In this document: positions 19,045 through 56,066 of the stretch, piece by piece
Layout: the number at the start of each line of letters is the position of its first letter
Position numbering within the stretch: position 1 is the stretch's first letter
From: Candidatus Thorarchaeota archaeon
GTDB lineage: Archaea; Asgardarchaeota; Thorarchaeia; Thorarchaeales; Thorarchaeaceae
NCBI GenBank assembly: GCA_019057475.1
Contig: DXJO01000010.1
Coordinates: forward strand, 43,460 to 107,459
Direction: 5' to 3'
Length of the DNA: 64,000 nt
Made by a program: the position numbers and the translations under genes
Notes under the pieces: generated by a model
Told to the model about the DNA's origin: nothing
What the model saw: only the letters and a program-made list of their open reading frames with translations
The model's database searches: none

Positions 19045-19135
19045 GGCCCCCTACAGAGCTGGTGGTCTGGTTCCGTGGGCTTCAAACCCATGATCGTGCA
19101 AGCGATAAGAGTTCGATTCTCTTAGGAGGCCGCCA
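19045..19135 (+). tRNA. tRNA-Sec (anticodon UCA), folded by hand.
   Basis: Acceptor GGCCCCCTA pairs with TAGGAGGCC (19123-19131), with one C.A mismatch. G73 is at 19132 and CCA is encoded at 19133-19135. D arm is CAGAGC-TGGT-GGTCTG. Anticodon stem is 6 bp, CGTGGG/CCCATG. Anticodon loop is CTTCAAA, with TCA at 19082-19084. Variable hairpin is ATCG-TGCAAG-CGAT. T arm is AGAG-TTCGATT-CTCT. TTTAAG TATA-like box at 19015-19020. Confidence 0.7.
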
Positions 19136-32823: not shown

Positions 32824-33918
32824 CTAGGATTTTCTCCCCGTCGCCAGTGCGGGTTGAGCAACCTCCGCAATGGCCTGAGCAATCTTCTCGCGCTTGCACG
32901 TTGGACAGGTGGTGTACGGTTCGAAGGGAAGACTGAGTCCATCAATCGCCTTAACCGCCTCTTTCTCCGCAAGACGCTTTTTGAGATCCTCACCAAACGG
33001 AATTGGACTGAAGGGCTCTCCACAGACGGAGCATTTCTGCAATTCGACTTCCAAGTCCCAGAGAGGTTCCTCCTTCATGTACGATAACAATTCAAACCCT
33101 GGCACAATCTCAATGGCCTCTTGTGGACAGGCTTTTTCACATTCCTTGCACACAAGGCACTCAGTGTGAAGAGTTCCGTACTTGCGCTTGTCTTCTACGT
33201 CTTCAATGGAAATGACATCTTCAGGGCACACGCTATAGCACGCATAACATCCGATGCATTTGTCCGGGTCCCTCTTTGGAAAACCATAACCTTCCATGAC
33301 TTCTTCCGGTTCGAAAATCATGACCTTTTCTGGTTCATAGTCGACTCGTCTGGCGATTGAAACCAAGACCTCATGGATCTTGTGTTTCTTGGAAACTGTT
33401 TCATCCACATCCAGGTCAGTCAGGTCACTGACATCCTTCACTGGGGTGGGTCCAAGCTTCTCAATCTTATTTGTGAAATTCGCGATGACTTCTGCCCACT
33501 TCGCTCCTTCAGCTGCTGAAACATGTTCGAAGGTAATCCTATCTCCCAACCCCATCTCATCGAGTATCTTCTTGAAGAAGTCGAAGCGCTTCTTGGCGGC
33601 GATATTGCCCTCAACATAGTGACAGTCCCCAATGTGACAACCACTAATGAGAACACCATCTGCACCCATCTCAAGCGCTCGAAGCACAAACAATGGGTCA
33701 ATTCTGCCGGTGCAATTTACTCGTATAATCCGAACATTGGGGGGATGCTGTATCCTGCTTGTGCCTGCGAGGTCAGCTCCGGCGTAGGAGCACCAATTGC
33801 ACGTCAGAGCGAGAATCCTCGGAAAGAATTCCCCCTTCTTCTTTCCTTTCGATTTCGGGGCGGATGGAGTTTCTTTGCTCGTAACCGTCAAGATCAAAGG
33901 GGCCTCCGGATGCTTCAA
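32824..33918 (-). CDS. MvhD/FlpD-domain protein fused to ferredoxin domains.
   Basis: LTCNWCSYAGADLAG...CHIGDCHY MvhD signature, with all positions Cys. Two ferredoxin motifs and extra CxxC pairs follow. The start codon is TTG. Confidence 0.65.
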   Translation of the reverse strand: MKHPEAPLILTVTSKETPSAPKSKGKKKGEFFPRILALTCNWCSYAGADLAGTSRIQHPPNVRIIRVNCTGRIDPLFVLRALEMGADGVLISGCHIGDCHYVEGNIAAKKRFDFFKKILDEMGLGDRITFEHVSAAEGAKWAEVIANFTNKIEKLGPTPVKDVSDLTDLDVDETVSKKHKIHEVLVSIARRVDYEPEKVMIFEPEEVMEGYGFPKRDPDKCIGCYACYSVCPEDVISIEDVEDKRKYGTLHTECLVCKECEKACPQEAIEIVPGFELLSYMKEEPLWDLEVELQKCSVCGEPFSPIPFGEDLKKRLAEKEAVKAIDGLSLPFEPYTTCPTCKREKIAQAIAEVAQPALATGRKS

Positions 33919-34646: not shown

Positions 34647-36539
34647 TCACTCGTCAGGAATCTCCATTCCACTGGCTTCTTCTACCAAACCAAGACGTTG
34701 CAGTGTAGATGCATACGGGATACCAGTTTCGTTGTCCCACCCACGCTTCAGATAGTACTCGTCCAACATCTGGTCCAGCTCAACTACTTCCCCCTTGGAT
34801 GGTCCAAGAGGCGCACCCTCTTTTGTCAGTCTGTCAGGAAGACAGTCATCAGCTCGTGTCACGCCACGTCTTGCATTGAATAGACGGTTCAGGTTTACGA
34901 TACGCTCCCCTATGGTCTGCAGGTCTGCTCTTGTGAACTCGAACCCATTGTGAACCTTCAGTGCAAGTGCTACATCCTCATAGTAGAACTCAGGAGGGAT
35001 TTGCGTTCCATACTTGCACAATCCTAGGCTCTCGACGACAACCATGAAGTCCTCACACTCTTTCACCATTATTCCCTTGTACTTAGGATTCAGACGTTCT
35101 GCCATCTCAGGGAGATACTCCTCTCCGAAGCGCTCCCTTATCTCATCATCAAAGCCGGCCTCATCTAGGACAGGGAATGCGTAGAGATGGTCCGCCCCCC
35201 TTGCCGCGGTGACTGCAGCAAGCCCCATGGACTTCTGAGCGCGCGGTTCTTGCCCTGCAATCTCTTGCTTTTTCACTGTCATCACAAACTTCTCGGTGCC
35301 TCGACCTATTTTCTCTGCGGCTCGTGCACTTCCTTCAGCAAGAACATCACCAAATCCCTCTCTGAAGGCAATCATCTTGATGAGCTTGACAATGGACTCA
35401 TGATTGCCCCACGAAAGGTCGATTCCATCTGTATCATCTGCCGTGAGTAGGCCCTCATCCCATGCCTCCATGGCCCAAGAGATGGTGCCACCCAAGGATA
35501 TCGTGTCCATTCCGTACTGATTGGCCAAATGATGACCAAAGAGGACTGACTCCAAGTTATCATTGCCACAACGGGAGCCCAGTGATGATTGAGTCTCAAA
35601 CTCTGGCGACCCGCCTACGTATTTGTACGGGCCTTCTTTGACGGAGGTATAGCGTGCACACCTTTGCAAGCAGCACCAGTCTGACCTTGGTTTCACAAGA
35701 TACTTCTCGGTGATTGTTTCGCCGCTTATCTTCTCATATCCCTCAAAGACCCCTTGACGCATGTTGTAGCTTGGCAGTCTCCCTATATGCTGCATCATCT
35801 CAACAAGATTAGTTGTTCCGTACTTCGCCCTTCCCGGAGTAAAGGGATTTGCCAGCATGCGACGATAGAATTCATCCATAGTATCCATGTACTTCTTGGG
35901 GTCTGCAACCTCAATCTTTCCCGCACCTCGCACACATATGGCCTTCAGCTTCTTTGAGCCCATCACCGCGCCAAGTCCAGAACGAGCGGAGGCACGGTCT
36001 CTATCATTCATCACTGCCGCAAAGCGGACAAGGTTCTCGCCTGCTTGCCCGATATAGATCAATCTGGCTCGCTTGCCGTGTCGCTTCCGCAGTATGTCAT
36101 CGGTCTCAAACACATCTCGGCCCCAGACATCATCAGCACTTAGGAGTTCCACAGTCGAGTCATTGATGTTCAAGTAGACTGGGTCTGGCGATGCTCCAGT
36201 GAAGAAAATGGCATCATAGCCTGCCAGCTTGAGTTCGGGTCCCCAGAACCCTGCCGCATGACTCTCTCCCCATACATCAGTGAGAGGCGAGAGAGCTGCA
36301 ACAACGTGTCGTGATGACTGCGGGAACATTGATGCTGTGAGCAATCCTGTGGCAAAGCCTAGGACATTCTCTGGTGAGAGTGGATCAATGTCAGTCGGAA
36401 TGGAGTCAAAGAGAACCTTTGAGAGATACCCCGCGCCAAGAAGGTACTTCTCTACAAGTTTCTTCTCAATAGGCCTCTTCTCAATCTCTCCTTTTGTTAG
36501 GTCCACCCAAATGACTTTACCACCTACTCCGTGAATCAT
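34647..36539 (-). CDS. aor: Tungsten-containing aldehyde:ferredoxin oxidoreductase (AOR family), copy 1.
   Basis: AOR_N and AOR C-terminal domains. Pterin-binding and EXXH/CxxxC cluster region present. 630 aa. Confidence 0.85.
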   Translation of the reverse strand: MIHGVGGKVIWVDLTKGEIEKRPIEKKLVEKYLLGAGYLSKVLFDSIPTDIDPLSPENVLGFATGLLTASMFPQSSRHVVAALSPLTDVWGESHAAGFWGPELKLAGYDAIFFTGASPDPVYLNINDSTVELLSADDVWGRDVFETDDILRKRHGKRARLIYIGQAGENLVRFAAVMNDRDRASARSGLGAVMGSKKLKAICVRGAGKIEVADPKKYMDTMDEFYRRMLANPFTPGRAKYGTTNLVEMMQHIGRLPSYNMRQGVFEGYEKISGETITEKYLVKPRSDWCCLQRCARYTSVKEGPYKYVGGSPEFETQSSLGSRCGNDNLESVLFGHHLANQYGMDTISLGGTISWAMEAWDEGLLTADDTDGIDLSWGNHESIVKLIKMIAFREGFGDVLAEGSARAAEKIGRGTEKFVMTVKKQEIAGQEPRAQKSMGLAAVTAARGADHLYAFPVLDEAGFDDEIRERFGEEYLPEMAERLNPKYKGIMVKECEDFMVVVESLGLCKYGTQIPPEFYYEDVALALKVHNGFEFTRADLQTIGERIVNLNRLFNARRGVTRADDCLPDRLTKEGAPLGPSKGEVVELDQMLDEYYLKRGWDNETGIPYASTLQRLGLVEEASGMEIPDE

Positions 36540-40961: not shown

Positions 40962-42074
40962 TCAGTTGTAGCTCAGGGCGTCATGCGGACAGACCGAGAT
41001 ACACATACCACAAGCTTGACATCTTGATTTGTCGAAGCGCAGTTCCTGTCCTTCCTTATCAGTTGATATTGCTTCATAGACACAGGACTTCTCACAGAGT
41101 CCACAGAGTGTGCATTTCTCCATGTCTACCTTTGGAGGTGGCGTGAAAACGATTTTCTTTGTGAGGTGCTTAAGCCCCAACCCTCGCACGTCTTCTACCG
41201 AGTCATAGCCATGAGCATCCAGCCACTTGTCCATCTCAGATGCAATGCGGCCATACACAGTCTGCCCCTCTAGGATTGCAGCTGTGCATACCTCGACAGC
41301 ATGAGCTCCGGCCATGATGAATTCTATCGCGTCTTCTCCGTCGCTAACTCCTCCCACACCGATCACAGGCTTTCGGATTGCCCGGGCGATGTCTGCCACA
41401 CACCGTATTGCTACTGGTTTTATTGATGCACCACTAAGCCAACCGTAGCCCGATTCACTCCCCAGCATGGGTTTACCGGTTTCTATGTCAATTCTGAGAC
41501 ATGGTCCCAGTGAGTTTATCGCGACCACTCCATCGACGTAAGGTTCCACTGACTTGGCTACTTCGACAACATCTACCTTCGGACTAAGCTTCGCAAAGAT
41601 GGGTATCTCAACAGCCTCACGCAACGCCTTTGCAATTTCGACATGCCCACCAACATAATGGGTACTGAATTCCAGTGCATGGACTCCCGCCTTCTCAATC
41701 TTCGGCGCGAGGCCAGCAACGTCTTCCGGAGTGTATCCTAGACTAGCAATCACAGGAAGACCAGTGTCCAATGCGATTTTGTATTCCTTGTCAAGCCACT
41801 GTTCAATCGGCAGCTCGCTCCATAGTTCTGCGTTGAGGATGCCCCGTCTTGAGCCTGCTCTTCCTTTGCGAACTGCAACAATGTTCGGGGTGGGCACTTT
41901 TGCAGCGCTCACGCTTACAGTCTTTGCAACGAGTCCGCCTGCGCCACCTTTTGCAGCCACGAGAAGAGTATCGCCGTCACGCGCTCCAGGGCCAGCAGCA
42001 GTAAGAACGGGATTCCTAAGAGTGAAACTTGTGACTTCGACACTGAGGTCAGCCATTTTATTTTCCTCTAGCAA
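40962..42074 (-). CDS. PreA-like dihydropyrimidine/dihydroorotate dehydrogenase catalytic subunit with a C-terminal 2x[4Fe-4S] domain.
   Basis: DHOD class-1 TIM barrel, then CTLCGLCEKSC and CQACGMCISVCP. Confidence 0.7.
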   Translation of the reverse strand: MLEENKMADLSVEVTSFTLRNPVLTAAGPGARDGDTLLVAAKGGAGGLVAKTVSVSAAKVPTPNIVAVRKGRAGSRRGILNAELWSELPIEQWLDKEYKIALDTGLPVIASLGYTPEDVAGLAPKIEKAGVHALEFSTHYVGGHVEIAKALREAVEIPIFAKLSPKVDVVEVAKSVEPYVDGVVAINSLGPCLRIDIETGKPMLGSESGYGWLSGASIKPVAIRCVADIARAIRKPVIGVGGVSDGEDAIEFIMAGAHAVEVCTAAILEGQTVYGRIASEMDKWLDAHGYDSVEDVRGLGLKHLTKKIVFTPPPKVDMEKCTLCGLCEKSCVYEAISTDKEGQELRFDKSRCQACGMCISVCPHDALSYN

Positions 42075-43995
42075 GCATCTTTCTCTTCGCTAGGTCGTCA
42101 GCAACATAATCGAGACCAAGCTCTTGAAGCTTCTCTCTCTTCGGAAATCCTGTTTCCCTGTCACAACCCCTGAAATCGTAGTACTCGTCCAGCATCTCGT
42201 CTAGGTCGGGAAGTCCACCCTTCGCTGGGCCTGTGGGCATGGGCTCCTTGAGCAGCCTTTGAGGTAAGTTCTCTTGCTTTCGCGTGATTCCTAGTCTGTG
42301 GTTATACGCGCGCCTCAGATGGCTAATCCTCTCAGCCGCCTGCTTTACGTATTTCGTGTCGGACCATTCAGTCATCCCCGTCAGCGGCGAGATAACATTC
42401 ACAAACGTATCATAGTAGTAAATTGGCGGCCACATCGTGGAATACTTGCAAATGACTGCAGAGTCAACTAACGCGTATAGGTCCTCAATGTCCTTGATAA
42501 TCTCACCCTTATGTTTTGGTGACATTATGTCCAGTATTTCATCGGCTTTCTCCGCACCGAATCTCTCACTCACAATATCCGGATAGCCCAGTTCTTCAAG
42601 ACTGGATAGACTCCTGAGATGGTCTGCTCCTCTCACATTAGTGGCGTAGGTGAGACCTACCGACTGGTGCGCTCTCGGATCTTGTCCTGAAGCCTCAAGC
42701 CCTTTCACATGCACCGCGTATTTCCAAGCGTCCCCGCCAATAATCTCAGCTGCTTTCCTCACGCCCTTGGAAAGCATGTCACCTATCCCCTCGCGTTTGC
42801 CAATCATCTCAACGAGCTTGACCATGGAGTCCACATTACCCCACGAGAGGTCGAGTCCATCGGTGTCCTTCTTTGTTAGAATGCCTTTCTCCCAAAGCTC
42901 CATTGCAAAGCCTATGGTCTTGCCGCATGAAATCGTATCCATCCCAATCAGGTCACACCTTGTACCCATATGGAATATGGACTCGACATCATTATTCAGA
43001 CAATTGGAACCAAATGCCATGAGTGTTTCGTATTCTGGCCCTCCTGCCGGCCCTCCTCCGAATGCGCCTTCCTTCACCTTGTATATGTATTTGCATCCAA
43101 TTGCGCATCCGTGACATGCCTCCTGAGTGGTTCGGTAATTCTCAGCAATTGTTTCAGGCCCGATATCATCAGCCTGCTCGTAGAACCCTGTCCAGTGATT
43201 TTTCGTAGGCAGTCTGCCTATCTCGTTGATGATGGCAACAAGGTCAGTTGTGCCGTACTTCCTCAAAGAAGCCAATGATGCAGTCCAGAGTGGGTCGTTT
43301 AGCTTGGCCATTTCCTCAGCATTGGCCTCTAGGTACTTGTCCATATCATGGACCTCAAGGCCAAGCGAACCCCTGCACGCAATGCCCTTCACATTCTTGG
43401 AACCCAAAACTGCTCCAATGCCACAACGGCCTGCGGCACGATAAACATCTACTATAACGCTGGCATACGATACCAACTTTTCTCCTGCTGTTCCAATTAC
43501 AGCGGTTTCGACAGCGGGGTCTTTGTGCTCCTCTCGAATCATCTGAGTGGTGATATCGGTTTCGCGTCCCCAAAGATCGGAAGCATCAAGAAGTTCAGCA
43601 TGTCCGTCACGGAGGAAGAGGTACACATGCTTCGGTGACCTGCCACGAATCACCACGAAGTCAAAACCTGCGTACTTCATCTCTGGTCCAAAGAATCCAC
43701 CTACATGGCTTTCAGCCCAGACGCCTGTGAGTGGCCCCTTTGCCGCGAACATCATTCGTCCTGACGGTGAGAACATAGAACCTGTGAGTGGCCCAGTACC
43801 TATGACAACCACGTTGTCCGGTGAGAGCGGATCTGTGTCTGGTCCGGTCGAGTCCCATAGTATCCTTGCTGCGACACCTGAGCCCCCCAAGTACAGTCGC
43901 GCCCATTCCTTCTCCATCTCGCGCTTGTGGATTTTACCCTTAGTAAGGTCGACATCCAGGTAGTGCCCTGCGTATCCCTTGTATGGAAACGTCAT
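42058..43995 (-). CDS. aor: Tungsten-containing aldehyde:ferredoxin oxidoreductase (AOR family), copy 2.
   Basis: Paralog of copy 1 with the same domain order. 645 aa. Confidence 0.85.
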   Translation of the reverse strand: MTFPYKGYAGHYLDVDLTKGKIHKREMEKEWARLYLGGSGVAARILWDSTGPDTDPLSPDNVVVIGTGPLTGSMFSPSGRMMFAAKGPLTGVWAESHVGGFFGPEMKYAGFDFVVIRGRSPKHVYLFLRDGHAELLDASDLWGRETDITTQMIREEHKDPAVETAVIGTAGEKLVSYASVIVDVYRAAGRCGIGAVLGSKNVKGIACRGSLGLEVHDMDKYLEANAEEMAKLNDPLWTASLASLRKYGTTDLVAIINEIGRLPTKNHWTGFYEQADDIGPETIAENYRTTQEACHGCAIGCKYIYKVKEGAFGGGPAGGPEYETLMAFGSNCLNNDVESIFHMGTRCDLIGMDTISCGKTIGFAMELWEKGILTKKDTDGLDLSWGNVDSMVKLVEMIGKREGIGDMLSKGVRKAAEIIGGDAWKYAVHVKGLEASGQDPRAHQSVGLTYATNVRGADHLRSLSSLEELGYPDIVSERFGAEKADEILDIMSPKHKGEIIKDIEDLYALVDSAVICKYSTMWPPIYYYDTFVNVISPLTGMTEWSDTKYVKQAAERISHLRRAYNHRLGITRKQENLPQRLLKEPMPTGPAKGGLPDLDEMLDEYYDFRGCDRETGFPKREKLQELGLDYVADDLAKRKMLARGK

Positions 43996-46591: not shown

Positions 46592-47989
46592 ATGAAATCC
46601 GCTAAGTCACTCCTTGTCAAGAACGGCTACATTCTCACAATGAATCCCCGCAGGGAGATAATCCGAGATGGGACCGTGTACATCGAAGGTCAGAAGATTA
46701 TAGAAGTGGGCAAGAGTGAAGCACTGAAGAGTCGAAAGGCGGAGGTTGAGATAGACGCCCGGAATATGATCGTGATGCCTGGGCTCATTGACACCCATGT
46801 TCATCTCGCTCAAGCGCTGATTCGGGGGTGTGCCGATGATGTCGCATTGGTTGATTGGTTGAAGAACTACGTCTGGGTGTTGCAGGGGAATTTCACACAT
46901 GACGATGGCAGGGTGTCAGCAGAGCTCTGTATGGCCGAGATGATAAAGACGGGCACTACCGCTTTCGTTGAGTGCATGATTCATACTCGGTACGGTTTCG
47001 ATGGCATTGCGAAAGCGGTGGAACAGGCGGGAATGAGAGGTGCGCTTTCAAAGATAATCATGGACTCCACTGGATATGCCGATAGCCCCGACATCATGTA
47101 TCCTGGAATGGTCGAAGATGCTGATGCCTGCTTGAAGGAAACAGAAACTATGCTGGCGCGCTGGCATGGAAAAGCCGACGGACGGATTCAGGTGTGGTAC
47201 GGACTACGATCTCTTGGTGCTGTTAGCGAAGAGCTGTTCAAGGATGTGGGAAGACGTACTAGGTCCCACAAGACGCAAATGACAATGCATCTGGGTGAGG
47301 TGCCCGACGATGTCAGATACGTCCGGCAGAACCACGATATGAGCCTCACAGAGTTTGCTGAGACGCAGGGGCTTCTGGGACCAGAGATGATATTCGCTCA
47401 CGGGATTCATTTCGAGGAATCTGATCTCAAGCGGCTAGCTGAAACACGCTCCAACGTGAGTCACTGTCCTGCAAGCAACACGAAGCTGGCTTCAGGGTTT
47501 GCCAGGATTCCTCGCATGCTGGAACTTGGTGTACCTGTTTCACTAGGTTGTGACGGCGGACCAAGTAATAACACGTATGACATGATTCGTGAGATGCGCC
47601 TTGCAGCACTAATCCATAAGCCAATTGCTAACGACCCGTTGGTTGTCAGTGCTGAAGAAGTCATTGAGATGGCAACTCTCGGTGGTGCAGTTGCTATGGG
47701 TATCTCCGATACTGTCGGCTCTCTGGAACCCGGTAAACATGCAGATCTGATTCTTGTGGACATGAGCGATTTGGGGCTCACTCCAAACACCAATCCTGTT
47801 TCCAATCTCGTCTATGCAGGGTCTGGTCATGCGGTAGATACAGTAGTCGTGAATGGCAGACTGCTGATGAGAAACCGGGAACTACTGACCATGGATGAAA
47901 CCGAGGTGAAGAAGAAGGCTCTTAGACATAGCAAGGATCTCATAGAGCGAGCTGGCGTGGATATCAGTCCCAAGTGGCCTGTTCTCTAG
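46592..47989 (+). CDS. Amidohydrolase of the MtaD/SsnA/guanine-cytosine deaminase family.
   Basis: MPGLIDTHVHLAQ ... HCPASN ... D ligand pattern. Confidence 0.7.
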   Translation: MKSAKSLLVKNGYILTMNPRREIIRDGTVYIEGQKIIEVGKSEALKSRKAEVEIDARNMIVMPGLIDTHVHLAQALIRGCADDVALVDWLKNYVWVLQGNFTHDDGRVSAELCMAEMIKTGTTAFVECMIHTRYGFDGIAKAVEQAGMRGALSKIIMDSTGYADSPDIMYPGMVEDADACLKETETMLARWHGKADGRIQVWYGLRSLGAVSEELFKDVGRRTRSHKTQMTMHLGEVPDDVRYVRQNHDMSLTEFAETQGLLGPEMIFAHGIHFEESDLKRLAETRSNVSHCPASNTKLASGFARIPRMLELGVPVSLGCDGGPSNNTYDMIREMRLAALIHKPIANDPLVVSAEEVIEMATLGGAVAMGISDTVGSLEPGKHADLILVDMSDLGLTPNTNPVSNLVYAGSGHAVDTVVVNGRLLMRNRELLTMDETEVKKKALRHSKDLIERAGVDISPKWPVL

Positions 47990-48000
47990 TAGTGATGGGC

Positions 48001-49596
48001 TTAGCTGAAGCCAGTGAGTGCCCAGTTGATGTGGTATACGGACATAGCGTCCCTACCACAGATGATGTTATCATCGAGATCGACCCTATAGAGCGTGGTT
48101 AATGCGCCCCCGATATAACTCCCGAAGACCCAGAACCAGTCATCGAAGAACACGATGTAGTCGCATCCCCTGTCGTACATGTATTGCAATGTTTCCCGTG
48201 TTGTCATGTTTCCGTGAACAATGTCGGGTGTGACCAGACCTATTATGTCGATGACAGCCCTGTTCCCAAAGAACCTGACTGCTCCTGCATCGCAGATTGC
48301 CAAGACCGCATCCTCAGGAGTATTCTCCGCAATCCACTCGCCGATGGTCACCTGCATGTCATTGATGTTTTTCACAGCATTTCCAAAGGTCTGAGCCTGA
48401 TGCGCGTAGAGCGGCTGCATGGGGACAATTAGGACTCCTATGATGAAAATTACAGTCATAAACCTAGCACTCGTCTTGATGTCGGCATACTTCTTCAAAC
48501 TCAGTGCCCATTCCAACATGAATGCGGTGCTCGTGATTGCGACGACCAAGAATAGTGCGTGGGCGGGAATCAGATATCTAGTGTTGTTCACTAGGGACTG
48601 ATACGGCATTGTAAACCTATAGAGGAGGGTCAGTGACCATGCTACAAGCCAAGGAAACGGCTTCCCTTTGATGGCAAGTACCAGACCGCTCCCGAATGCC
48701 ACCCAGAGAAATGGCCATGAGCGCAGCCAATACCACCACCATATATTCCAAGCCTCTACCCCAGCTTCGGTAGGAAGATGCACCTTCACGTAGAAAGTGT
48801 CTGGAAGTGGATATCCGGTGGCATTCAGGCAGTACAGTATCCACGGGAGAACAACTGCCAGAGAGATTGCACCCATGAGAAGGAATGAGCCCAGTCTTCG
48901 CCAGGATAGTTCGCGATGCCAAACCACCATCAGAAATCGCACAGGAACGCAGATCAGCACAAGGATAACTCCCTCGGGTCTTGCCAGGTATGCCAGACCC
49001 AGAATGATACCAAGAATTGGATCGTACTTGATGTCCTTCTTATCAAGAACGAAGACAGCGAGAACTAGCAGGAAGACGAAGATGGGCGCCTCCATGCCCG
49101 ATAGCATAAGCCAAGTGTTGCCAGGTACTAGCACGAACCCTCCCATTGCCAAAAGGCTCCAAACCGGCTGGCCGGCGTAGTCTTGTGCAATCTTACCAAC
49201 AACAAACGTGGAGGTAGCGTACAAGACTATCGCAATTACGTACGTTCCCCAGATGATGTAGACTGGGTCATCTGTCAGAAAGAATAAGCTGGAGAGGATT
49301 ATCGACCACAAGGGGCTCGTGGAACCAGTACTTGGGACGCCAGGCGAGTACTGCCAAGGGATACCCTCGTAGATGGTCCTTGCGTATTGAATGTGAATCC
49401 ACGAGTCATCTAAAGGGAAACCGGGGTAGGTCCAGAGTTGCATTGTAGAGATGTAGTGAATGCAAGTTGCCAACGTGACGAGGATTGAGAACATCAAGAG
49501 TCCTAGGTCGAGCTTGTGGACAGCAACCCAGTCCATGAACGCAGCTCGAACTCTCAGGACGAGTGCATTCCCGTTGGAATCCGGACTCTCCTCCAC
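48001..49596 (-). CDS. Polytopic membrane protein, GT-C-fold (PMT/ArnT-like) glycosyltransferase candidate.
   Basis: At least 10 TM helices. DD/DE motif (PLDDSWIH) in the first loop. C-terminal soluble domain. Confidence 0.4.
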   Translation of the reverse strand: MEESPDSNGNALVLRVRAAFMDWVAVHKLDLGLLMFSILVTLATCIHYISTMQLWTYPGFPLDDSWIHIQYARTIYEGIPWQYSPGVPSTGSTSPLWSIILSSLFFLTDDPVYIIWGTYVIAIVLYATSTFVVGKIAQDYAGQPVWSLLAMGGFVLVPGNTWLMLSGMEAPIFVFLLVLAVFVLDKKDIKYDPILGIILGLAYLARPEGVILVLICVPVRFLMVVWHRELSWRRLGSFLLMGAISLAVVLPWILYCLNATGYPLPDTFYVKVHLPTEAGVEAWNIWWWYWLRSWPFLWVAFGSGLVLAIKGKPFPWLVAWSLTLLYRFTMPYQSLVNNTRYLIPAHALFLVVAITSTAFMLEWALSLKKYADIKTSARFMTVIFIIGVLIVPMQPLYAHQAQTFGNAVKNINDMQVTIGEWIAENTPEDAVLAICDAGAVRFFGNRAVIDIIGLVTPDIVHGNMTTRETLQYMYDRGCDYIVFFDDWFWVFGSYIGGALTTLYRVDLDDNIICGRDAMSVYHINWALTGFS

Positions 49597-49677: not shown

Positions 49678-50907
49678 CTACGCAATTATGGCTTCTCTTT
49701 CGAACAGCTTTGCTCCGATGATCATGAATACAATCGTGAATCCAAGAAGGTATGCGACATTCCCAAGCAGGCCGATGGGCGTGGCAGTACCTGACAGTAC
49801 ACCGTTAAGGAATATTATGGCATGGCTGAACGGAATCGCCAACACAATGAGCCCGAATATACCTCCGTACTGAAGTATGCTTCCAGTGAAGCCTAGGATG
49901 CCTATGACCATTGTGGGGACGAGGAGTATGAGGTTGTTCAAGGACTCCGCTGTGGCCTGGTCCTTGGCAAGGCATGAGATCACCACTCCAATCCCAATGG
50001 CACATAGCAATACCAAGAACTGGACGAAAACTATCAGCGGCACTGTATTCAGGTTGATTGAGTATAGATCGATGTATGCAGTTGCTTCTTGAGGCACAGT
50101 GCTCGTTGCACGAGTGATAACCAGCCAGTTGTACAGAACAATCCCTACAACAGTGAATGCGGAGTAGATAGACGAGAGGAGCATACCTGCAGCAAGCTTT
50201 GCACCTAAAATCTTCAGCCTGCTCATTGGTACCACTAGAAGGGCTTCAAGAGTATGCTTCTCTCTCTCGCCCGCGAAGGATTTGCTCACATATGGCGACG
50301 GTGCTAGAACAGATGTTAGCATGACTAAAAAAATGGCGAGCTGGTGTCCATAGGATGCCTCAGCAGTAGTCGGAACTTCCCACGCAATCCGAAGGTTTCT
50401 CACGATTTGAATAGCGTTTATTTTGATCCTCGAGAACTCAGCCAATCTGGCAGCTGCGGCGGATGCCCGGAAGTTACCAGTATTGACAGCAATCTGGATA
50501 GTGCTATGGTTCGTTGTTTCAAGTATCTGGGTGAAGTTTGATGGTATCCATAACCATACGGATGCTGTCCGGTTATCCCAGAGACTTTGACCAACAGACC
50601 TCTCCACGCGCACCAACTCCTCTATCAGGAGCAACTTGTCTGTCAGGTTGGCATTCTCAAGCGCAACCTGAGTGTCGATGGCGTCGTAGAGGATCTGTCC
50701 CCATCCTCCTCCATCATCAAGAGTGATGTACACGGTTTCAGGCTCTACGGCCTGCTCCACGATAAATCCGAGGAACATACCCTGAAACGTCCAAGCGAAG
50801 AGCGGACTGATGATGAAGCCAAGAAGCAGCCACCGCGAACGGAGAACAGACTTGATTTCCTTCCTTAGAATCCAGACAGTTTTCGAGTCGATTCTCATGC
50901 TCATCAT
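49678..50907 (-). CDS. ABC-2 type exporter permease.
   Basis: N-terminal TM helix, large extracytoplasmic loop, then 5 TM helices. Confidence 0.6.
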   Translation of the reverse strand: MMSMRIDSKTVWILRKEIKSVLRSRWLLLGFIISPLFAWTFQGMFLGFIVEQAVEPETVYITLDDGGGWGQILYDAIDTQVALENANLTDKLLLIEELVRVERSVGQSLWDNRTASVWLWIPSNFTQILETTNHSTIQIAVNTGNFRASAAAARLAEFSRIKINAIQIVRNLRIAWEVPTTAEASYGHQLAIFLVMLTSVLAPSPYVSKSFAGEREKHTLEALLVVPMSRLKILGAKLAAGMLLSSIYSAFTVVGIVLYNWLVITRATSTVPQEATAYIDLYSINLNTVPLIVFVQFLVLLCAIGIGVVISCLAKDQATAESLNNLILLVPTMVIGILGFTGSILQYGGIFGLIVLAIPFSHAIIFLNGVLSGTATPIGLLGNVAYLLGFTIVFMIIGAKLFEREAIIA

Positions 50908-51668
50908 CCCTCGAATACGCCTTCTCCAGTCACAAGCCCCGTAAAGACCTCCTCAAGATTGGCGGCCTTGTACTTCTCCTCAAGCTCATTCGGCTTGCCT
51001 GTGGCTACCAGCCGCCCGTCGTTAAGAATTCCCACCCTGTGACACAGTTCTGATACCTCGTTGAGGTCGTGTGTGGTCAACACAATCGTCCGCTTCTCTT
51101 CTGAGCTGAGCTTCTTCAGGAGGTTCCTGACGACTCGAGCCCCTATTGTGTCAATTCCGGTTGTAGGCTCGTCAAGGAATAATACCTCTGGCTCTATTAC
51201 AAGCGCCCTTGCAACCAGAACCTTCCTTTTCATACCGCCGCTGAACCCCTTGACTTGGTAGTCCTCTTTCTCGCGTAAGCCGACGATGTCCAGTAGTCTG
51301 TCTGCTCGGCGGTGGAGCTCGTCTTCGGGGATACCATATAGGCCACCATAGTAAACGATGTTCTCGCGTGCAGTCAATCGCTCGTAGATCCCCGCTTCTT
51401 GGGGTAGAAGAGCTACTCTTGGCCGGATGTAATCTATGTCCTCGACGACATCTTTTCCCAACACCCAAGCTTGCCCCTCTGTGGGAGTCAAGAGACCCAC
51501 CAGAACGCGGATGAGAGTTGTCTTCCCCGCTCCGTTCGGGCCAATCAGCCCAAAGACCTCCCCGCGGCCTATCTCAAGGTTGACATGGTCTAGTGCAGTG
51601 ACCTCCCTCTTCTTGCCCTTCTCGAAAACCTTGGAGAGGTTCTCGGTCCTAATGACTATGTCATCCAT
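50904..51668 (-). CDS. ABC transporter ATP-binding protein.
   Basis: Walker A GPNGAGKT, signature FSGGMKRK, Walker B LFLDEPT. ATGA overlap with the permease. Confidence 0.85.
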   Translation of the reverse strand: MDDIVIRTENLSKVFEKGKKREVTALDHVNLEIGRGEVFGLIGPNGAGKTTLIRVLVGLLTPTEGQAWVLGKDVVEDIDYIRPRVALLPQEAGIYERLTARENIVYYGGLYGIPEDELHRRADRLLDIVGLREKEDYQVKGFSGGMKRKVLVARALVIEPEVLFLDEPTTGIDTIGARVVRNLLKKLSSEEKRTIVLTTHDLNEVSELCHRVGILNDGRLVATGKPNELEEKYKAANLEEVFTGLVTGEGVFEG

Positions 51669-51693
51669 GATTTGCGCATTCCTGTTCTGGTTG

Positions 51694-52461
51694 TTATTTA
51701 ATGTGGTCTATCTTTGGAAAGGGCGGTTCCCCTTTCAGATCCAGCATGAACTTGTGGGCTCTATCGATGTTCTTGTCCTCTCCCTCTATGAAGAGAGTGA
51801 TGCTACCTTCCGCACCATTGACGCCTCCCGCAGCGAAGGGGATAGCTGAAACATCGAATAGCGCATCAATGGCCTCCATCTCGGTGAAGGCTATGCCCTC
51901 TGGCACTGCTATAACGCCAACTGGCGTTCCAATGGCGTAGTCCCAATCGTCTTTTCCGAATTGGCCAGCGAAATCATCATAGGCGACGGGGATGTTCTTC
52001 TCGAGACCTATCGGCATAATTATCGTGATATTCTTTGAAGCCGCAGTGCCGAGGAAGGAACCGACTGTTCCTCCGGTTGGACTTGCCAGGAGAACGACCG
52101 GAGTGTAGTCTGCATCTAAGGCATTTGCGCTCTTGATAATCACGTCGTCTGGTCCCAACTCCTCTAGGACATCAATGATCTTCTTGCCTTTGAGATGCTT
52201 CCCCTTGTGAAAGATTGCGTCGGAAGATCTGCTCTCAGCTTCGGTTACTGACAATCCCTGAGGCAAAACCACACCAGCTATGTGTCGTGTCTTGTCGTAT
52301 TCTCCTAGTATCTCTTCCACGAGATAGGAGGAGGTTGTACCCAGAGTCACGCAGAGGTAACCGTTCTTCAGGGCTTCCTTAACCGTATCTGTGGCAAGGA
52401 GGCCTCTCGCGATTAGCCTCTTACTCTCGGCCGGTGTCAGTGTCACAAGCAGCTTCTTCAT
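51694..52461 (-). CDS. Hypothetical protein immediately upstream of the ABC exporter.
   Basis: ORF. Start placed at the internal ATG (MKKLLVTL). The long ORF would start at a GTG at 52548. Confidence 0.3.
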   Translation of the reverse strand: MKKLLVTLTPAESKRLIARGLLATDTVKEALKNGYLCVTLGTTSSYLVEEILGEYDKTRHIAGVVLPQGLSVTEAESRSSDAIFHKGKHLKGKKIIDVLEELGPDDVIIKSANALDADYTPVVLLASPTGGTVGSFLGTAASKNITIIMPIGLEKNIPVAYDDFAGQFGKDDWDYAIGTPVGVIAVPEGIAFTEMEAIDALFDVSAIPFAAGGVNGAEGSITLFIEGEDKNIDRAHKFMLDLKGEPPFPKIDHIK

Positions 52462-52605
52462 CGTATCAATCTCCTCGTTATTCTCGTGATGCTGTCCATT
52501 TGAATTTGTAGGCTCCGATTTTCTCCAGATATGGTTATCTTTTTGCACACGGTTCTTGGCGCGCTTCCACGAAGCCTTTTACGAGGAAGCTACATTCCTA
52601 GCACG

Positions 52606-53598
52606 ATGCCCATGGCAGGAACAAGCCTCTTTGACTTGGGAGCTACAGGCGTGGAGAGAATCCTCGAGACCGCACAATCAGTTCTAGAAACCGGTTTCTC
52701 TACGATTGTGAAGCACATGCATACGCTCCGCGTAGTGGGGACCTTCCTGCACAATGCTCCGTCCTACGAACGGACAGTAGCCCAAGCAACCGCAGCTCGG
52801 CTTTATTCTTCTCATATCGACCTGAACATCCACAGAGAATACGCCCTGTCTGATTATGAGCTTCTGAGTGAGATTACCATGGCCAGCTCTGCCACGGATC
52901 TACTGCTGACATCCTATACGGACCCTCAGGCTTTCGGTGATGGACGGCGGCTCACTGAAAAACTCCCGAGTGTCATAGGCAAGCCCATGATAAGTCTGGC
53001 AGACGATATCTATGCCCATCAGTCTGCCCTTGCTGAGCTAGCCTCCGTCCGATATAATCTCGACCGAATTGAGGGTCGTCGCATCGTCATATGTTGGGGA
53101 TTTGGCTCAAGGTTCGTCTTGCCTCGGACACCCCATAGCTTGCTGATTCTGGGTGCTATGCTTGGCGCTGAGATGAGAGTTGCAGCTCCCCCTGGGTTTT
53201 CTCTTGTCAGAAGAGCAGTGCGTGAGGCCCGGAAGCGTTCAAGGACAACGAGCATAGTCATCGAAGAGGTTGACAGCTTCGAGGGCGCTTTCGAAGATGC
53301 GGATGCAGTGTTTGCTCTCAACTGGGGTCGACTGGACAACTTCAATCACCCTGAGCGCAATGCTGAGGACGCCAGTCCATTCAAGGATTGGTTCCTGACT
53401 GGAAACATGCTTCCCAAGAACTGTCTGTTTGCTACAGAACCTCCAGTACAGGATGACCTCATTGCTGGTGGAGAGCTGCTTCAGAGCAATAGGAATGTGA
53501 CCCCGACCTGGTTGAGCCGAAGAGTCGCAGTGTTGGCAGCATCGATTCTGCATGTCCTCCAGAACAGTAAGGCGGACGTTCCGGCCGCTCTCGTATGA
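52606..53598 (+). CDS. Aspartate/ornithine-carbamoyltransferase-fold protein with degenerate catalytic motifs.
   Basis: Colinear with the OTC/ATC fold, but STRTR is replaced by SYERT, HPxQ by AHQS and HCLP by NCLF. Start chosen at MPMAG. Confidence 0.45.
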   Translation: MPMAGTSLFDLGATGVERILETAQSVLETGFSTIVKHMHTLRVVGTFLHNAPSYERTVAQATAARLYSSHIDLNIHREYALSDYELLSEITMASSATDLLLTSYTDPQAFGDGRRLTEKLPSVIGKPMISLADDIYAHQSALAELASVRYNLDRIEGRRIVICWGFGSRFVLPRTPHSLLILGAMLGAEMRVAAPPGFSLVRRAVREARKRSRTTSIVIEEVDSFEGAFEDADAVFALNWGRLDNFNHPERNAEDASPFKDWFLTGNMLPKNCLFATEPPVQDDLIAGGELLQSNRNVTPTWLSRRVAVLAASILHVLQNSKADVPAALV

Positions 53599-53642
53599 CT
53601 CACAGACCTTTTATCATGTAGCCGCACATCCGTTCTACAATC

Positions 53643-54746
53643 ATGTGGCGCTTGCTACGTCCTGATGCAACCAGTGTCTGGAAGAATCCTGAAGCTTTGA
53701 AGAGGCTTCGCCGCTACCGAGGAATCATCGATATGGAGCGGTGGGCAAAGTATGTCCTCTCAAAGGATATTGAGTGTGATGTGGATTTCACTGAACCAAC
53801 TGAAAGCCTGTGGGAACGCCATGCTGCCCTATCAAAGCAGATGACGGAGTACTTGGAGCGGATTGATGGGGGCGGCAAGCGCGTGAGCACTGATGAAGCT
53901 CCTGAAGTCAGCTTCTTGGACCTCAAAGTGGAACTGACGAAACGGATTCTGCAGGAATGTCACTTCTGCGAGCGGAAGTGTGGAGCTGATAGGACGCGCG
54001 ACGAAAAGGGTTGGTGTAAGCTCGGGGCAGAATCAAGAGTTTCGTCGGTGTTCTTGCACACGGGTGAGGAAGCTCCCCTTGTTCCAAGCGGGACCATCTT
54101 CTTTGCATCCTGCTGCTTCGGTTGTGTGTTCTGTCAGAATAGCGATATCTCAACAGACCCAAACTCAGGCTCCGTCGTGACATCAGATCAGTTGGCAGCT
54201 CTTGCAGAGAGGCTATTCCGGGATGGCGCCCTGAACATCAACTATGTGGGTGGAGACCCCATCCCCAATACTCACACGATAATCGCTTCGCTGAAGAACC
54301 AAACATCGAACGTGACCCAGCTATGGAACTCCAATCTCTATTGCTCAGAGGACACAATGAAGCTGCTTGTTGACATCTTTGACGTGTGGCTTCCAGACTT
54401 CAAGTACGGGAATGATGAGTGTGCCTTGCGACTATCAGGCGTCAAGGACTACTTCCCAGTCGTGTCGCGGAATCATCTGATGGCGTACAATCACGGGGAG
54501 GTGATTATCAGACATCTGGTAATGCCTGGTCATCTGGAGTGTTGTACGTTTCCGATTCTGGAATGGATCTCAGAGAATATGCCAAACTGCATGGTCAACA
54601 TCATGGGTCAATACAGGCCCGAGCATCGTGTTCTCAAGGATCCAGAACGATACTCTGACATTGCTCGGGGGGTTTCAAGGGAGGAGATGCAAACCGCCTT
54701 CGATAAGGCCAAGCAATTAGGCATATGCTGGAAACCGGTCAGTTAG
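53643..54746 (+). CDS. Radical SAM enzyme, PflX/activase-like.
   Basis: CHFCERKCG...GWC N-terminal motif and CCFGCVFC (CxxxCxxC). Confidence 0.7.
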   Translation: MWRLLRPDATSVWKNPEALKRLRRYRGIIDMERWAKYVLSKDIECDVDFTEPTESLWERHAALSKQMTEYLERIDGGGKRVSTDEAPEVSFLDLKVELTKRILQECHFCERKCGADRTRDEKGWCKLGAESRVSSVFLHTGEEAPLVPSGTIFFASCCFGCVFCQNSDISTDPNSGSVVTSDQLAALAERLFRDGALNINYVGGDPIPNTHTIIASLKNQTSNVTQLWNSNLYCSEDTMKLLVDIFDVWLPDFKYGNDECALRLSGVKDYFPVVSRNHLMAYNHGEVIIRHLVMPGHLECCTFPILEWISENMPNCMVNIMGQYRPEHRVLKDPERYSDIARGVSREEMQTAFDKAKQLGICWKPVS

Positions 54747-54949: not shown

Positions 54950-55195
54950 ATGGGATATAAGACCATCTCACTTTCAGAGAAAGCCTATGAGATGCTCAGG
55001 AAGATGAAACGAGAGAATGAGAGCTTTAGTCAGGTGGTGATTAGATTGTCTAACAGGAAGACTCTGAATGACTTCATCCGCTGTATATCGGAGAACTCCT
55101 CAGAGAAGCTCGTAGATGCACTTAGGACGTTCCGTGATGAGAGAGGTAGAGTATGGTCCGAAAGCATGGAAGAGCTACTCGGTGAACAGAATTGA
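54950..55195 (+). CDS. vapB: VapB-type antitoxin.
   Basis: 81-aa ORF whose stop overlaps the VapC start (ATGA). Confidence 0.45.
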   Translation: MGYKTISLSEKAYEMLRKMKRENESFSQVVIRLSNRKTLNDFIRCISENSSEKLVDALRTFRDERGRVWSESMEELLGEQN

Positions 55196-55584
55196 TTGCA
55201 GATACAAGCTTCATCATTGACCTCATGAGGGGAGATAAGGCTGCCTTGGATAAGCTGAGCGAGATAGTTGACAGAGGGCTTGGCCACCACATTGCATCCC
55301 CGACAGTGATGGAGCTTGCAGTGGGTGTTTCAATGGCCGAACTGCCCAGGAAAGAGAGAGAGAAAATCGAGGAAATTATTGAGGGGTTCCAAATCCTTCC
55401 GCTCGACTCGATCAGTGCATGGCGTGCCGGAGTTGAGCTCGGGAAACTGAGGAAGGTGGGAATGCCTCTCGATCCCATAGACGCCCAGATTGCTGGTATT
55501 GCACTCCAAAACGATGATGTCATTGTGACACGAAATCCGAAGCATTTTGAGAGATTTAGAGGGCTGAAAGTAGAAACATACTAG
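55192..55584 (+). CDS. vapC: PIN-domain toxin VapC.
   Basis: MIADTSFIIDL... has an acidic PIN triad. Confidence 0.7.
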   Translation: MIADTSFIIDLMRGDKAALDKLSEIVDRGLGHHIASPTVMELAVGVSMAELPRKEREKIEEIIEGFQILPLDSISAWRAGVELGKLRKVGMPLDPIDAQIAGIALQNDDVIVTRNPKHFERFRGLKVETY

Positions 55585-55832
55585 CGTTCTGGGTTGCAAA
55601 CAGCTGCAGCAAAGTTAGATATATCTGGATGATTCCATTGTAGGCTTTATGTAGACCAATTCGACAGTGGTTTCTGAGGAACATGACACACCTGTGAAGG
55701 GTCCTCACGGAGTAGTCCAGTGACGTTTCCTAGACGTACTAGACTTCAGTGTCCATCTTTGTGCAACCTACAATGAACGGTCATGTCACAAGACTCTAAA
55801 ACCATGATACAGATGAACACCTGTTGGTAGCC

Positions 55833-56066
55833 ATGTGTCTTGCAGTTCCTGGACTTGTCGAGAGCATAGAAGACGACTATGCTGATGTTGACTTTGGTGG
55901 AGTCCGAAAGAAGGTGTGCGTGACCCTGCTTCCTGGTCTTGAGGTGGGCGAGTACGTTATCGTACACACAGGATATGCAATAGAGCGGATGAAACCCGAG
56001 GAAGCAAAGAAGACACTGGCTCTCTGGGATGAGATGGCAGAGATGGCTGCCAAGATGGAGAAGTAG
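55833..56066 (+). CDS. hypC: [NiFe]-hydrogenase maturation chaperone HypC/HupF.
   Basis: MCLAVPG N-terminus and DFGGV...VHTGYAIE core. The tool ORF starts 3 codons earlier. Confidence 0.75.
   Translation: MCLAVPGLVESIEDDYADVDFGGVRKKVCVTLLPGLEVGEYVIVHTGYAIERMKPEEAKKTLALWDEMAEMAAKMEK

Follow-up and report, generated by a model that had tools for sequence, protein, structure and literature searches.

What does a protein with the fold of a transcarbamylase do once the residues that bind carbamoyl phosphate are gone, and does it work with the radical S-adenosylmethionine (SAM) enzyme encoded beside it? Both questions are raised by two neighbouring genes, here called gene A and gene B, in a 64,000-nt stretch of Candidatus Thorarchaeota DNA (the window: contig DXJO01000010.1, positions 43,460 to 107,459 of the forward strand, assembly GCA_019057475.1; all positions below are those of the window). 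An initial annotation, made from the letters of the sequence, had described gene A as a degenerate transcarbamylase and treated the pair as a system. We find that gene A belongs with the knotted (AOTCase/YgeW-type) transcarbamylases as a divergent paralogue, so far seen in Thorarchaeota-type genomes only, and that its adjacency to gene B adds no information beyond lineage-wide synteny. We tentatively favour, at a little under an even chance, the combined reading that the gene A product is either a pseudo-transcarbamylase that binds a ligand or an enzyme working without carbamoyl phosphate, and that the gene is transcribed independently of gene B. The two genes are as follows.

52606-53598, forward strand: gene A, 330 codons plus stop, a transcarbamylase-fold protein without SxRT, HPxQ or HxLP
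53643-54746, forward strand: gene B, 367 aa, a radical SAM protein whose PflA-like core is joined by an N-terminal helical domain (about 100 aa) and by additional cysteine motifs

The spacer between them measures exactly 44 nt (53599-53642), and both genes lie on the same strand, just as first described. A longer open reading frame for gene A starts at ATG 52531; in relatives the start corresponds to 52606, and the 52531 start would overlap the divergent upstream gene, whose homologues begin at 52461.

The product of gene A has the two-domain transcarbamylase fold. Its AlphaFold model, built with 33 family members as input, has a predicted local distance difference test score (pLDDT) of 86.8 and a predicted template-modelling score of 0.90, and the only high-scoring Foldseek matches to it are transcarbamylases (E value 2e-18, template-modelling (TM) score about 0.8, identity 12-18%). 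Profile-profile alignment of the gene A family with canonical enzymes gives a probability of 99.96% and an E value of 3e-39 over 312 columns at 14% identity. The protein had first been described as colinear with ornithine and aspartate transcarbamylases (OTCase and ATCase). Pfam detects the C-terminal Asp/Orn-binding domain (PF00185, 32.4 bits against a cut-off of 29.4) and gives no match to the N-terminal carbamoyl-phosphate-binding domain (PF02729). The NCBIfam models of AOTCase (NF003384) and YgeW (NF005538) reach 48.1 bits against 288 and 35.5 against 453, respectively, and a sequence search of the PDB retrieves only the C-domain of YgeW. For gene A and gene B alike, searches for membership of a curated family in Pfam, NCBIfam and PADLOC returned generic or sub-cut-off matches only.

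Three motifs, SxRT, HPxQ and HxLP, characterise all known transcarbamylases (2015 review, PMC4581275). Their equivalents in gene A were fixed by the profile-profile alignment, and they are listed here with the conserved loops of the family.

52759-52773, forward strand: P52-S-Y-E-R56, equivalent of the STRTR loop, among the least conserved segments of the family, with position 55 always acidic
53002-53025, forward strand: D133-D-I-Y-A-H-Q-S140, equivalent of the HPxQ loop, with HPxQ itself at A137-H-Q-S140 and D133, D134 and Q139 invariant in the family
53095-53139, forward strand: W164-G-F-G-S-R-F-V-L-P-R-T-P-H-S178, a conserved loop that takes the place of the proline-rich loop in knotted transcarbamylases
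53296-53361, forward strand: D231-ADAVFALNW-GRLDNFNHPERN252, strand and equivalent of the 240's loop, the most conserved stretch of the family
53434-53445, forward strand: T277-E-P-P280, equivalent of HCLP in the profile alignment

The three motifs had originally been read as SYERT, AHQS and NCLF. The second of these holds as A137-H-Q-S140; the first segment is degenerate as claimed, but the register was one residue off (PSYER, residues 52-56); the third is degenerate under either mapping, although N272-C-L-F275 lies five residues upstream of TEPP and is not its equivalent. None of the motifs occurs in any of 30 representatives of the gene A family (0/30 for each) or in the 33 aligned members, compared with 58, 64 and 44 of the 72 nearest canonical relatives for SxRT, HPxQ and HxLP, respectively. 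The family has A-[H/W]-Q-S at the HPxQ position, and no representative carries HPxQ there. Sequencing error as a cause of the motif loss, with STRTR and HCLP reappearing intact after correction, had been held out as a possibility; it is ruled out, since the loss is family-wide.

Further residues of the phosphate site are gone as well. The counterpart of R106 has been deleted, the only one kept is R306 (the Arg of the C-terminal ENR motif), and the position equivalent to T59 of STRTR is Glu or Asp in all 33 aligned members, where an acidic residue would repel phosphate. Because the three motifs are lost throughout the family, the R106 equivalent is deleted and the T59 position is acidic, gene A does not encode a canonical carbamoyl-phosphate-dependent transcarbamylase. 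Judging from these residues, the protein would not transfer a carbamoyl group from carbamoyl phosphate. The 120's loop is extended, as in knotted transcarbamylases, being about 7 residues longer than in Escherichia coli ArgI and only 3 shorter than the knotted consensus in the profile alignment. The putative proline-rich loop (WGFGSRFVLPRTPHS) has the right length and position, with P173 as the sole invariant proline while the others vary. For the 240's-loop equivalent the model predicts flexibility, with a pLDDT below 50 over residues 244-251.

How widespread is this protein? A word-indexed search recovered 43 homologues at 35-93% identity, and when 1.84 billion representatives were searched exhaustively with a profile, 39 proteins came out at E values of 1e-30 or below, of which about 30 are full-length clusters at 50% identity. 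A clear score gap lies beneath the family, with canonical AOTCase/OTCase-like proteins at 111 bits or less. Scanning one genome per species across 185,579 species yielded 29 gene A loci, all in Thorarchaeota-type metagenome-assembled genomes (MAGs), some of them labelled "Promethearchaeota"; two additional MAGs with the same gene order carry the submitter labels Loki- and Hodarchaeota. In current databases the members are named "ornithine carbamoyltransferase" or "hypothetical".

Constraint within the family has left the phosphate loop and now falls on the loops that, in true enzymes, bind the second substrate. The fraction of sequences sharing the majority residue is 0.45 for the STRTR-equivalent segment, 0.76 each for DDIYAHQ and WGFG, the next highest values, and 0.93 and 0.82, the highest in the family, for D231-ADAVFALNW-GRLDNFNHPE. 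The consensus loops are WGFGxxFxxPxxAHS and a near-invariant LDxFNHPERN at the 240's loop, and 28 columns of the alignment are invariant. Across 29 independent genomes and about 60 protein clusters, the gene has an uninterrupted frame of 310-335 aa. Measured against two close relatives, the ratio of nonsynonymous to synonymous substitution rates (dN/dS) comes to 0.107 and 0.088; for gene B it is 0.046. Gene A evolves about 2.7 times faster than gene B (mean distance, 1.06 versus 0.39), and its median identity to the window protein is 41%, against 69-82% for the neighbours (69% for gene B). Given a dN/dS of about 0.1, the intact frame in 29 genomes and the 28 invariant columns, gene A is kept by selection: it is a functional gene with a re-targeted cleft, not a decaying one. 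The suggestion of the initial annotation that it encodes a pseudo-enzyme or a protein of other chemistry is a fair reading of motifs absent family-wide combined with purifying selection.

Comparison with characterised proteins places the family closest to the AOTCase/YgeW branch of the knotted transcarbamylases, represented here by AOTCase (PDB 3kzc), N-succinylornithine transcarbamylase (2fg6) and the YgeW type (3q98, 2yfk). Besides lacking the three motifs and R106, gene A differs from these proteins in having L-N-W for the K-S-W second-substrate motif and WLxRRV for the C-terminal ENRLHxQKA, and no arginine-biosynthesis or carbamate-kinase genes lie near it. Identity to OTCase (1a1s), ATCase and E. 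coli ArgI/PyrB is 12-19%, with no carbamoyl-phosphate-binding residue kept, and both the DxxxSMG motif of OTCase and the RxQxER motif of ATCase (definitions in PMC4581275) are missing.

Gene A is not alone in having lost SxRT, HPxQ and HxLP. The same is true of other proteins (for example P0215, P0311 and P0312 of KSB1-type bacteria, together with P0238 and P0249), which form independent lineages nested in a bacterial STRTR/HPLQ/HALP clade and, unlike gene A, keep ENRLH and the Pfam OTCace_N domain. Such independent motif-less lineages mean that the transcarbamylase fold has repeatedly lost its carbamoyl-phosphate site. The neighbours of these genes are PALP-family and pyridoxal-phosphate (PLP)-dependent decarboxylase genes, unlike the radical SAM gene beside gene A; in two KSB1-type loci (L043, 2549-3562; L044, 392-1402) the motif-less gene lies beside them. 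This context recalls the pairing of YgeW with YgeX in E. coli.

Turning to gene B, the cysteines ascribed to it in the initial annotation, an N-terminal CxxC...C motif followed by CxxxCxxC, are indeed present and invariant.

53958-54017, forward strand: C106-x2-C109-x3-C113-x11-C125, four-cysteine motif of gene B, invariant in 27 orthologues
54111-54134, forward strand: C157-C-F-G-C161-V-F-C164, radical SAM CxxxCxxC motif of gene B, invariant in 27 orthologues

Pfam assigns the protein to the radical SAM superfamily (PF04055, 41 bits against a cut-off of 29.5). The best structural match of its model (pLDDT 82.8) is PflA (3c8f; E value 1e-9, TM score 0.69), and PflA is also the only hit in a PDB sequence search. 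The core fold and the F-x-x-C-x3-C-x2-C-x-N cluster motif are common to both proteins, whereas gene B differs from PflA/PflX-like proteins in its additional invariant cysteines, in a confidently predicted N-terminal helical domain of about 100 residues without a PflA counterpart, and in its activase scores, all of which fall below the NCBIfam cut-offs (TIGR02493, 27.9 bits against 231.75; TIGR02494, 17.8 against 174.35; NrdG, 23 against 126). No gene for a glycyl-radical enzyme (PFL-like or Gly_radical) is found in the flanking parts of the window or in 10 related loci. An AmmeMemoRadiSam enzyme was considered and rejected (TIGR04337, 15.8 against 220 bits); AMMECR1 and Memo genes are absent from the flanking parts of the window and from the related loci examined. 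RaSEA, the archaeosine radical SAM enzyme, may be considered as another candidate identity for gene B.

Orthologues of gene B are 64-95% identical among the matches listed, and their source label is "putative pyruvate formate lyase activating enzyme". The CxxCxxxC...C motif that precedes the radical SAM motif is one that we take to be typical of PflX/COG1313-type proteins; its four cysteines may bind an auxiliary metal or cluster. More invariant cysteines (C260, C300, C301 and C316; about 54420-54592) are seen in the C-terminal half. Counting the cysteine motifs, the protein may carry up to three metal clusters. We infer that gene B encodes a separate PflA-fold radical SAM enzyme of PflX type with a promoter of its own.

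Is the pairing of A and B more than shared neighbourhood? Across 40 related loci the local order is PAS kinase, amidohydrolase, ABC-2 permease, ABC ATPase, a 255-aa gene, a variable insert, A, B, a second variable insert, hypC, NTP-transferase and glycosyltransferases. It had been allowed that A and B might never be neighbours in other genomes; they are adjacent in 25 of 30 loci, in one of which (L019) gene B is inverted, and in most loci the gap is 42-80 nt. The pair is separated in five loci (L014, L015, L028, L030/L039 and L031) that represent about four sub-lineages, and in one genome gene B lies 12.5 kb downstream of gene A with six unrelated genes between them. Control pairs from the same neighbourhood are adjacent in 82-96% of cases: kinase and amidohydrolase in 10/12, amidohydrolase and permease (convergent) in 14/17, permease and ATPase in 20/23, and ATPase and the 255-aa gene in 26/28. 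The adjacency of A and B adds nothing to lineage-wide synteny, because unrelated neighbouring pairs are equally often adjacent and all loci belong to one lineage.

Mirror-tree analysis found no excess co-evolution of A and B. The correlation between their distance matrices (r = 0.80) equals that between gene A and the 255-aa gene upstream (0.80) and is lower than that between gene B and the latter (0.88); the corresponding partial correlations are 0.31, 0.32 and 0.59. Nor is there a radical SAM gene beside the independent bacterial lineage of motif-less transcarbamylases, where PLP enzymes are found. A search of the literature on PflX/COG1313 or on a carbamoyltransferase-radical SAM pairing in Thorarchaeota returned nothing relevant. 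With adjacency at background level, a promoter-like box of gene B's own and no excess co-evolution, the treatment of the pair as a system finds no support apart from the shared gene order.

That box is one of three promoter-like elements, which we give together with hypC, the usual downstream neighbour of gene B.

53608-53615, forward strand: CTTTTATC, TATA-like box of gene B, in the A-B spacer, 27 nt upstream of the gene B ATG
52575-52582, forward strand: CCTTTTAC, TATA-like box of gene A, 23 nt upstream of its ATG
55790-55801, forward strand: AAGACTCTAAAA, conserved box upstream of hypC
55833-56066, forward strand: hypC (Pfam HupF_HypC, 4.6e-26), protein start MCLAVPG

Exact CTTTTATC occurs 24-27 nt upstream of the gene B start in 22 of 26 loci, with one-base variants in three more, and stays with gene B at the locus where the latter sits 12.5 kb from gene A. 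It is the sole conserved element of an otherwise variable spacer and has only 32 copies in 430 kb. From this conservation, CTTTTATC is probably gene B's own promoter; read through established archaeal promoter geometry, its spacing would imply a leaderless or near-leaderless gene B mRNA. An extended element, ctCA[CT]AG[AC]CCTTTTATC, can be recognised in the A-B spacers (53599-53642 in the window; L002-L042) 24-27 nt before the gene B start in 22 of 26 loci. Being longer than a plain TATA box, it may include a transcription factor B recognition element or a regulator site. CCTTTTAC is kept in the closest relatives of gene A only; other lineages have an ATTATCA-type box at a similar distance. 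In 19 loci the box about 30 nt before hypC (cacaAGATTCTAAAGA) keeps its place by that gene even where other genes have been inserted, and here too there is an extended form, gtcaCAAGA[TC]TCTAAAGA, about 30 nt before the MC start in the window (55780-55832) and in the 19 loci, which persists with VapBC or NYN insertions. The true hypC start is ATG 55833 (MCLAVPG), not TTG 55824. A generic promoter motif was considered and rejected: exact CCTTTTAT occurs once in the window, which makes the exact form gene-specific; looser boxes of the CTTTTA type lie upstream of several other window genes. Rfam and tRNA scans returned nothing in the A-B region. Because A, B and hypC each carry their own conserved promoter-like box, they look like three separate transcription units.

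The account that we tentatively prefer combines these observations. The protein of gene A, probably a trimer, would bind a specific non-phosphorylated ligand in its remodelled cleft, acting either as a non-catalytic pseudo-enzyme (a sensor or regulatory subunit) or as an enzyme with a different chemistry. Genes A and B would be functionally independent, and the A-B-hypC order would reflect a lineage-conserved gene order in which each gene is its own transcription unit, rather than an operon-encoded system. Several points weigh against this account. The adjacency of A and B survives rearrangements of both flanks: inserted genes separate A from the 255-aa gene, or B from hypC, but seldom split the pair itself; each of the six contigs examined around a gene B orthologue has gene A within 13 kb; and a functional link remains compatible with such persistence. 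Read-through from A into B is possible, since the spacer has no strong T-run terminator, and the promoter assignment draws on conservation and spacing. The invariant polar residues of the cleft (D133, D134, Q139, H177, N239, H248, E250, R251, N252 and R306) would also suit an active enzyme equally well.

Some of this would fit a partnership, in which A and B form a lineage-specific two-step pathway: the radical SAM enzyme acts on a molecule or peptide that gene A binds, presents or converts, or the protein of gene A is itself the substrate or adaptor of gene B. The two genes are co-oriented and close in most loci, the pair persists where flanking genes differ and on all six gene B-centred contigs, and the PflA fold, the most open of the radical SAM folds, typically accepts protein substrates. 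We nevertheless regard a partnership as rather unlikely, given an adjacency rate no higher than that of unrelated neighbours, the conserved box at gene B, the splitting of the pair in five loci from about four sub-lineages, and evolutionary rates 2.7-fold apart without excess co-evolution; in addition, the family alignment suggests that gene A lacks a glycyl-radical-type motif, and the independent motif-less lineage adjoins PLP enzymes. Quite improbable is the bolder version in which A and B, possibly with HypC, form a Thorarchaeota-specific module whose radical enzyme modifies a ligand or loop held by the remodelled cleft, either to make a carbamoyl or diatomic-ligand precursor anaerobically for the maturation of [NiFe]-hydrogenase, or in what would be the first instance of a radical SAM enzyme using a transcarbamylase-fold protein as substrate or adaptor.

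Gene A could instead be a working transcarbamylase-type enzyme with another donor or acceptor (an acyl- or carbamoyl-transferase, or else a hydrolase), whose substrate would be non-phosphorylated and possibly cationic, with DD-Y--Q, WGFG, LNW and FNHPERN as catalytic or binding elements. The clustering of its invariant polar residues in loops that line the inter-domain cleft, the strong purifying selection and the retention of R306, the carbamoyl-phosphate-contacting Arg of the ENR motif, are consistent with this idea, and many transcarbamylase-like sequences without known motifs may be novel enzymes (2015 review, PMC4581275). Yet no known member of the fold works without SxRT, HPxQ and HxLP (PMC4581275), gene A evolves far faster than neighbouring housekeeping enzymes, which is more typical of released catalytic constraint, and the gene context suggests no candidate substrate; we consider this specific alternative unlikely. 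A role of A, B and hypC as an accessory module for [NiFe]-hydrogenase cofactor maturation, for example with A and B supplying a diatomic ligand precursor to HypC, is suggested by the position of hypC, which follows gene B directly in 13 of 20 loci and, in most of the rest, after a single intervening gene, and by one locus in which the gene B stop overlaps the called hypC start. HypF-dependent CN synthesis begins with carbamoyl phosphate, and the radical SAM enzyme HydG makes CO and CN for [FeFe]-hydrogenases. Even so, this module has very little probability: hypC has a conserved box that travels along with it, toxin-antitoxin or NYN genes are inserted between it and gene B, no hypD, hypE, hypF or hydrogenase large subunit was called in the flanks examined, glycosylation genes follow hypC, and gene A has no carbamoyl-phosphate site. 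Finally, the loss of catalytic motifs in the fastest-evolving gene of the neighbourhood might point to a decaying pseudogene or an assembly or annotation artefact; with an intact frame in 29 genomes and about 60 clusters, dN/dS near 0.1, 28 invariant columns and a confident fold prediction, we give this next to no chance and regard it as effectively refuted.

The gene A family is thus a new, uncharacterised variant of the transcarbamylase fold restricted to one Asgard lineage. A textbook enzyme family is defined by three carbamoyl-phosphate motifs, and gene A has none of them, yet purifying selection acts on it and its 240's loop is almost invariant; Asgard archaea seem to have put an enzyme scaffold to a new use. 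Finding its ligand would reveal what the transcarbamylase fold can do without carbamoyl phosphate and would also put right the arginine-pathway assignments made when Thorarchaeota metabolism is reconstructed. The co-oriented neighbours described here, each with its own conserved promoter-like box, also imply that adjacency alone is no proof of an operon in this lineage.

The remaining genes around A and B are the following.

49678-52461, reverse strand: divergent three-gene block of a 255-aa gene of unknown function, an ABC ATPase and an ABC-2 permease
51694-52461, reverse strand: the 255-aa gene, extended to 52548 in the list of open reading frames
50904-51668, reverse strand: ABC ATPase, part of the divergent upstream block
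49678-50907, reverse strand: ABC-2 permease, part of the divergent upstream block
54950-55584, forward strand: VapB/VapC toxin-antitoxin pair (Pfam VAPB_antitox and PIN), between gene B and hypC in the window genome only

The divergent block at 49678-52461 agrees with the ABC-2 exporter and 5' gene of unknown function that had been reported next to gene A, and its three genes are contiguous in 20-26 relatives. The 255-aa protein has no match in Pfam, NCBIfam, PADLOC or the PDB. It is about 70% identical across relatives and lies directly upstream of the ABC ATPase and ABC-2 permease in 26 of 28 loci; it is probably an accessory component of the ABC exporter. At the position of VapB/VapC, relatives have nothing or, in several cases, an NYN-domain gene on the opposite strand, which suggests that the interval between gene B and hypC is an insertion hot-spot. 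The slot between the 255-aa gene and gene A varies too (L001-L004, L007, L014, L015, L028, L030 and L041): in many relatives it holds an adenylosuccinate-lyase-type gene (Lyase_1 and ADSL_C, about 452 aa), divergent beside gene A, other relatives have a UDP-glucose dehydrogenase there, and the window genome has neither.

Farther upstream, the amidohydrolase at 46592-47989, syntenic in relatives and 5.6 kb from gene B, has 5'-deoxyadenosine deaminase as its best match (NF005557, 415 bits against a cut-off of 522). The latter enzyme recycles the by-product of radical SAM catalysis. Between the amidohydrolase and the ABC-2 permease, which are directly adjacent in most relatives, unlike in the window, lies a gene for a 531-aa multi-pass membrane protein (48001-49596, reverse strand) without a Pfam family and with a faint LA_3751-type glycosyltransferase match. 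A selenocysteine tRNA gene is found at 19045-19131 on the forward strand (Rfam tRNA-Sec, 52.1 bits; ARAGORN anticodon TCA). The window also encodes an MvhD/FlpD-like ferredoxin-domain protein and two aldehyde:ferredoxin oxidoreductases (32824-33669, 34647-36539 and 42058-43995), which indicate an anaerobic, ferredoxin-based metabolism of the source organism.

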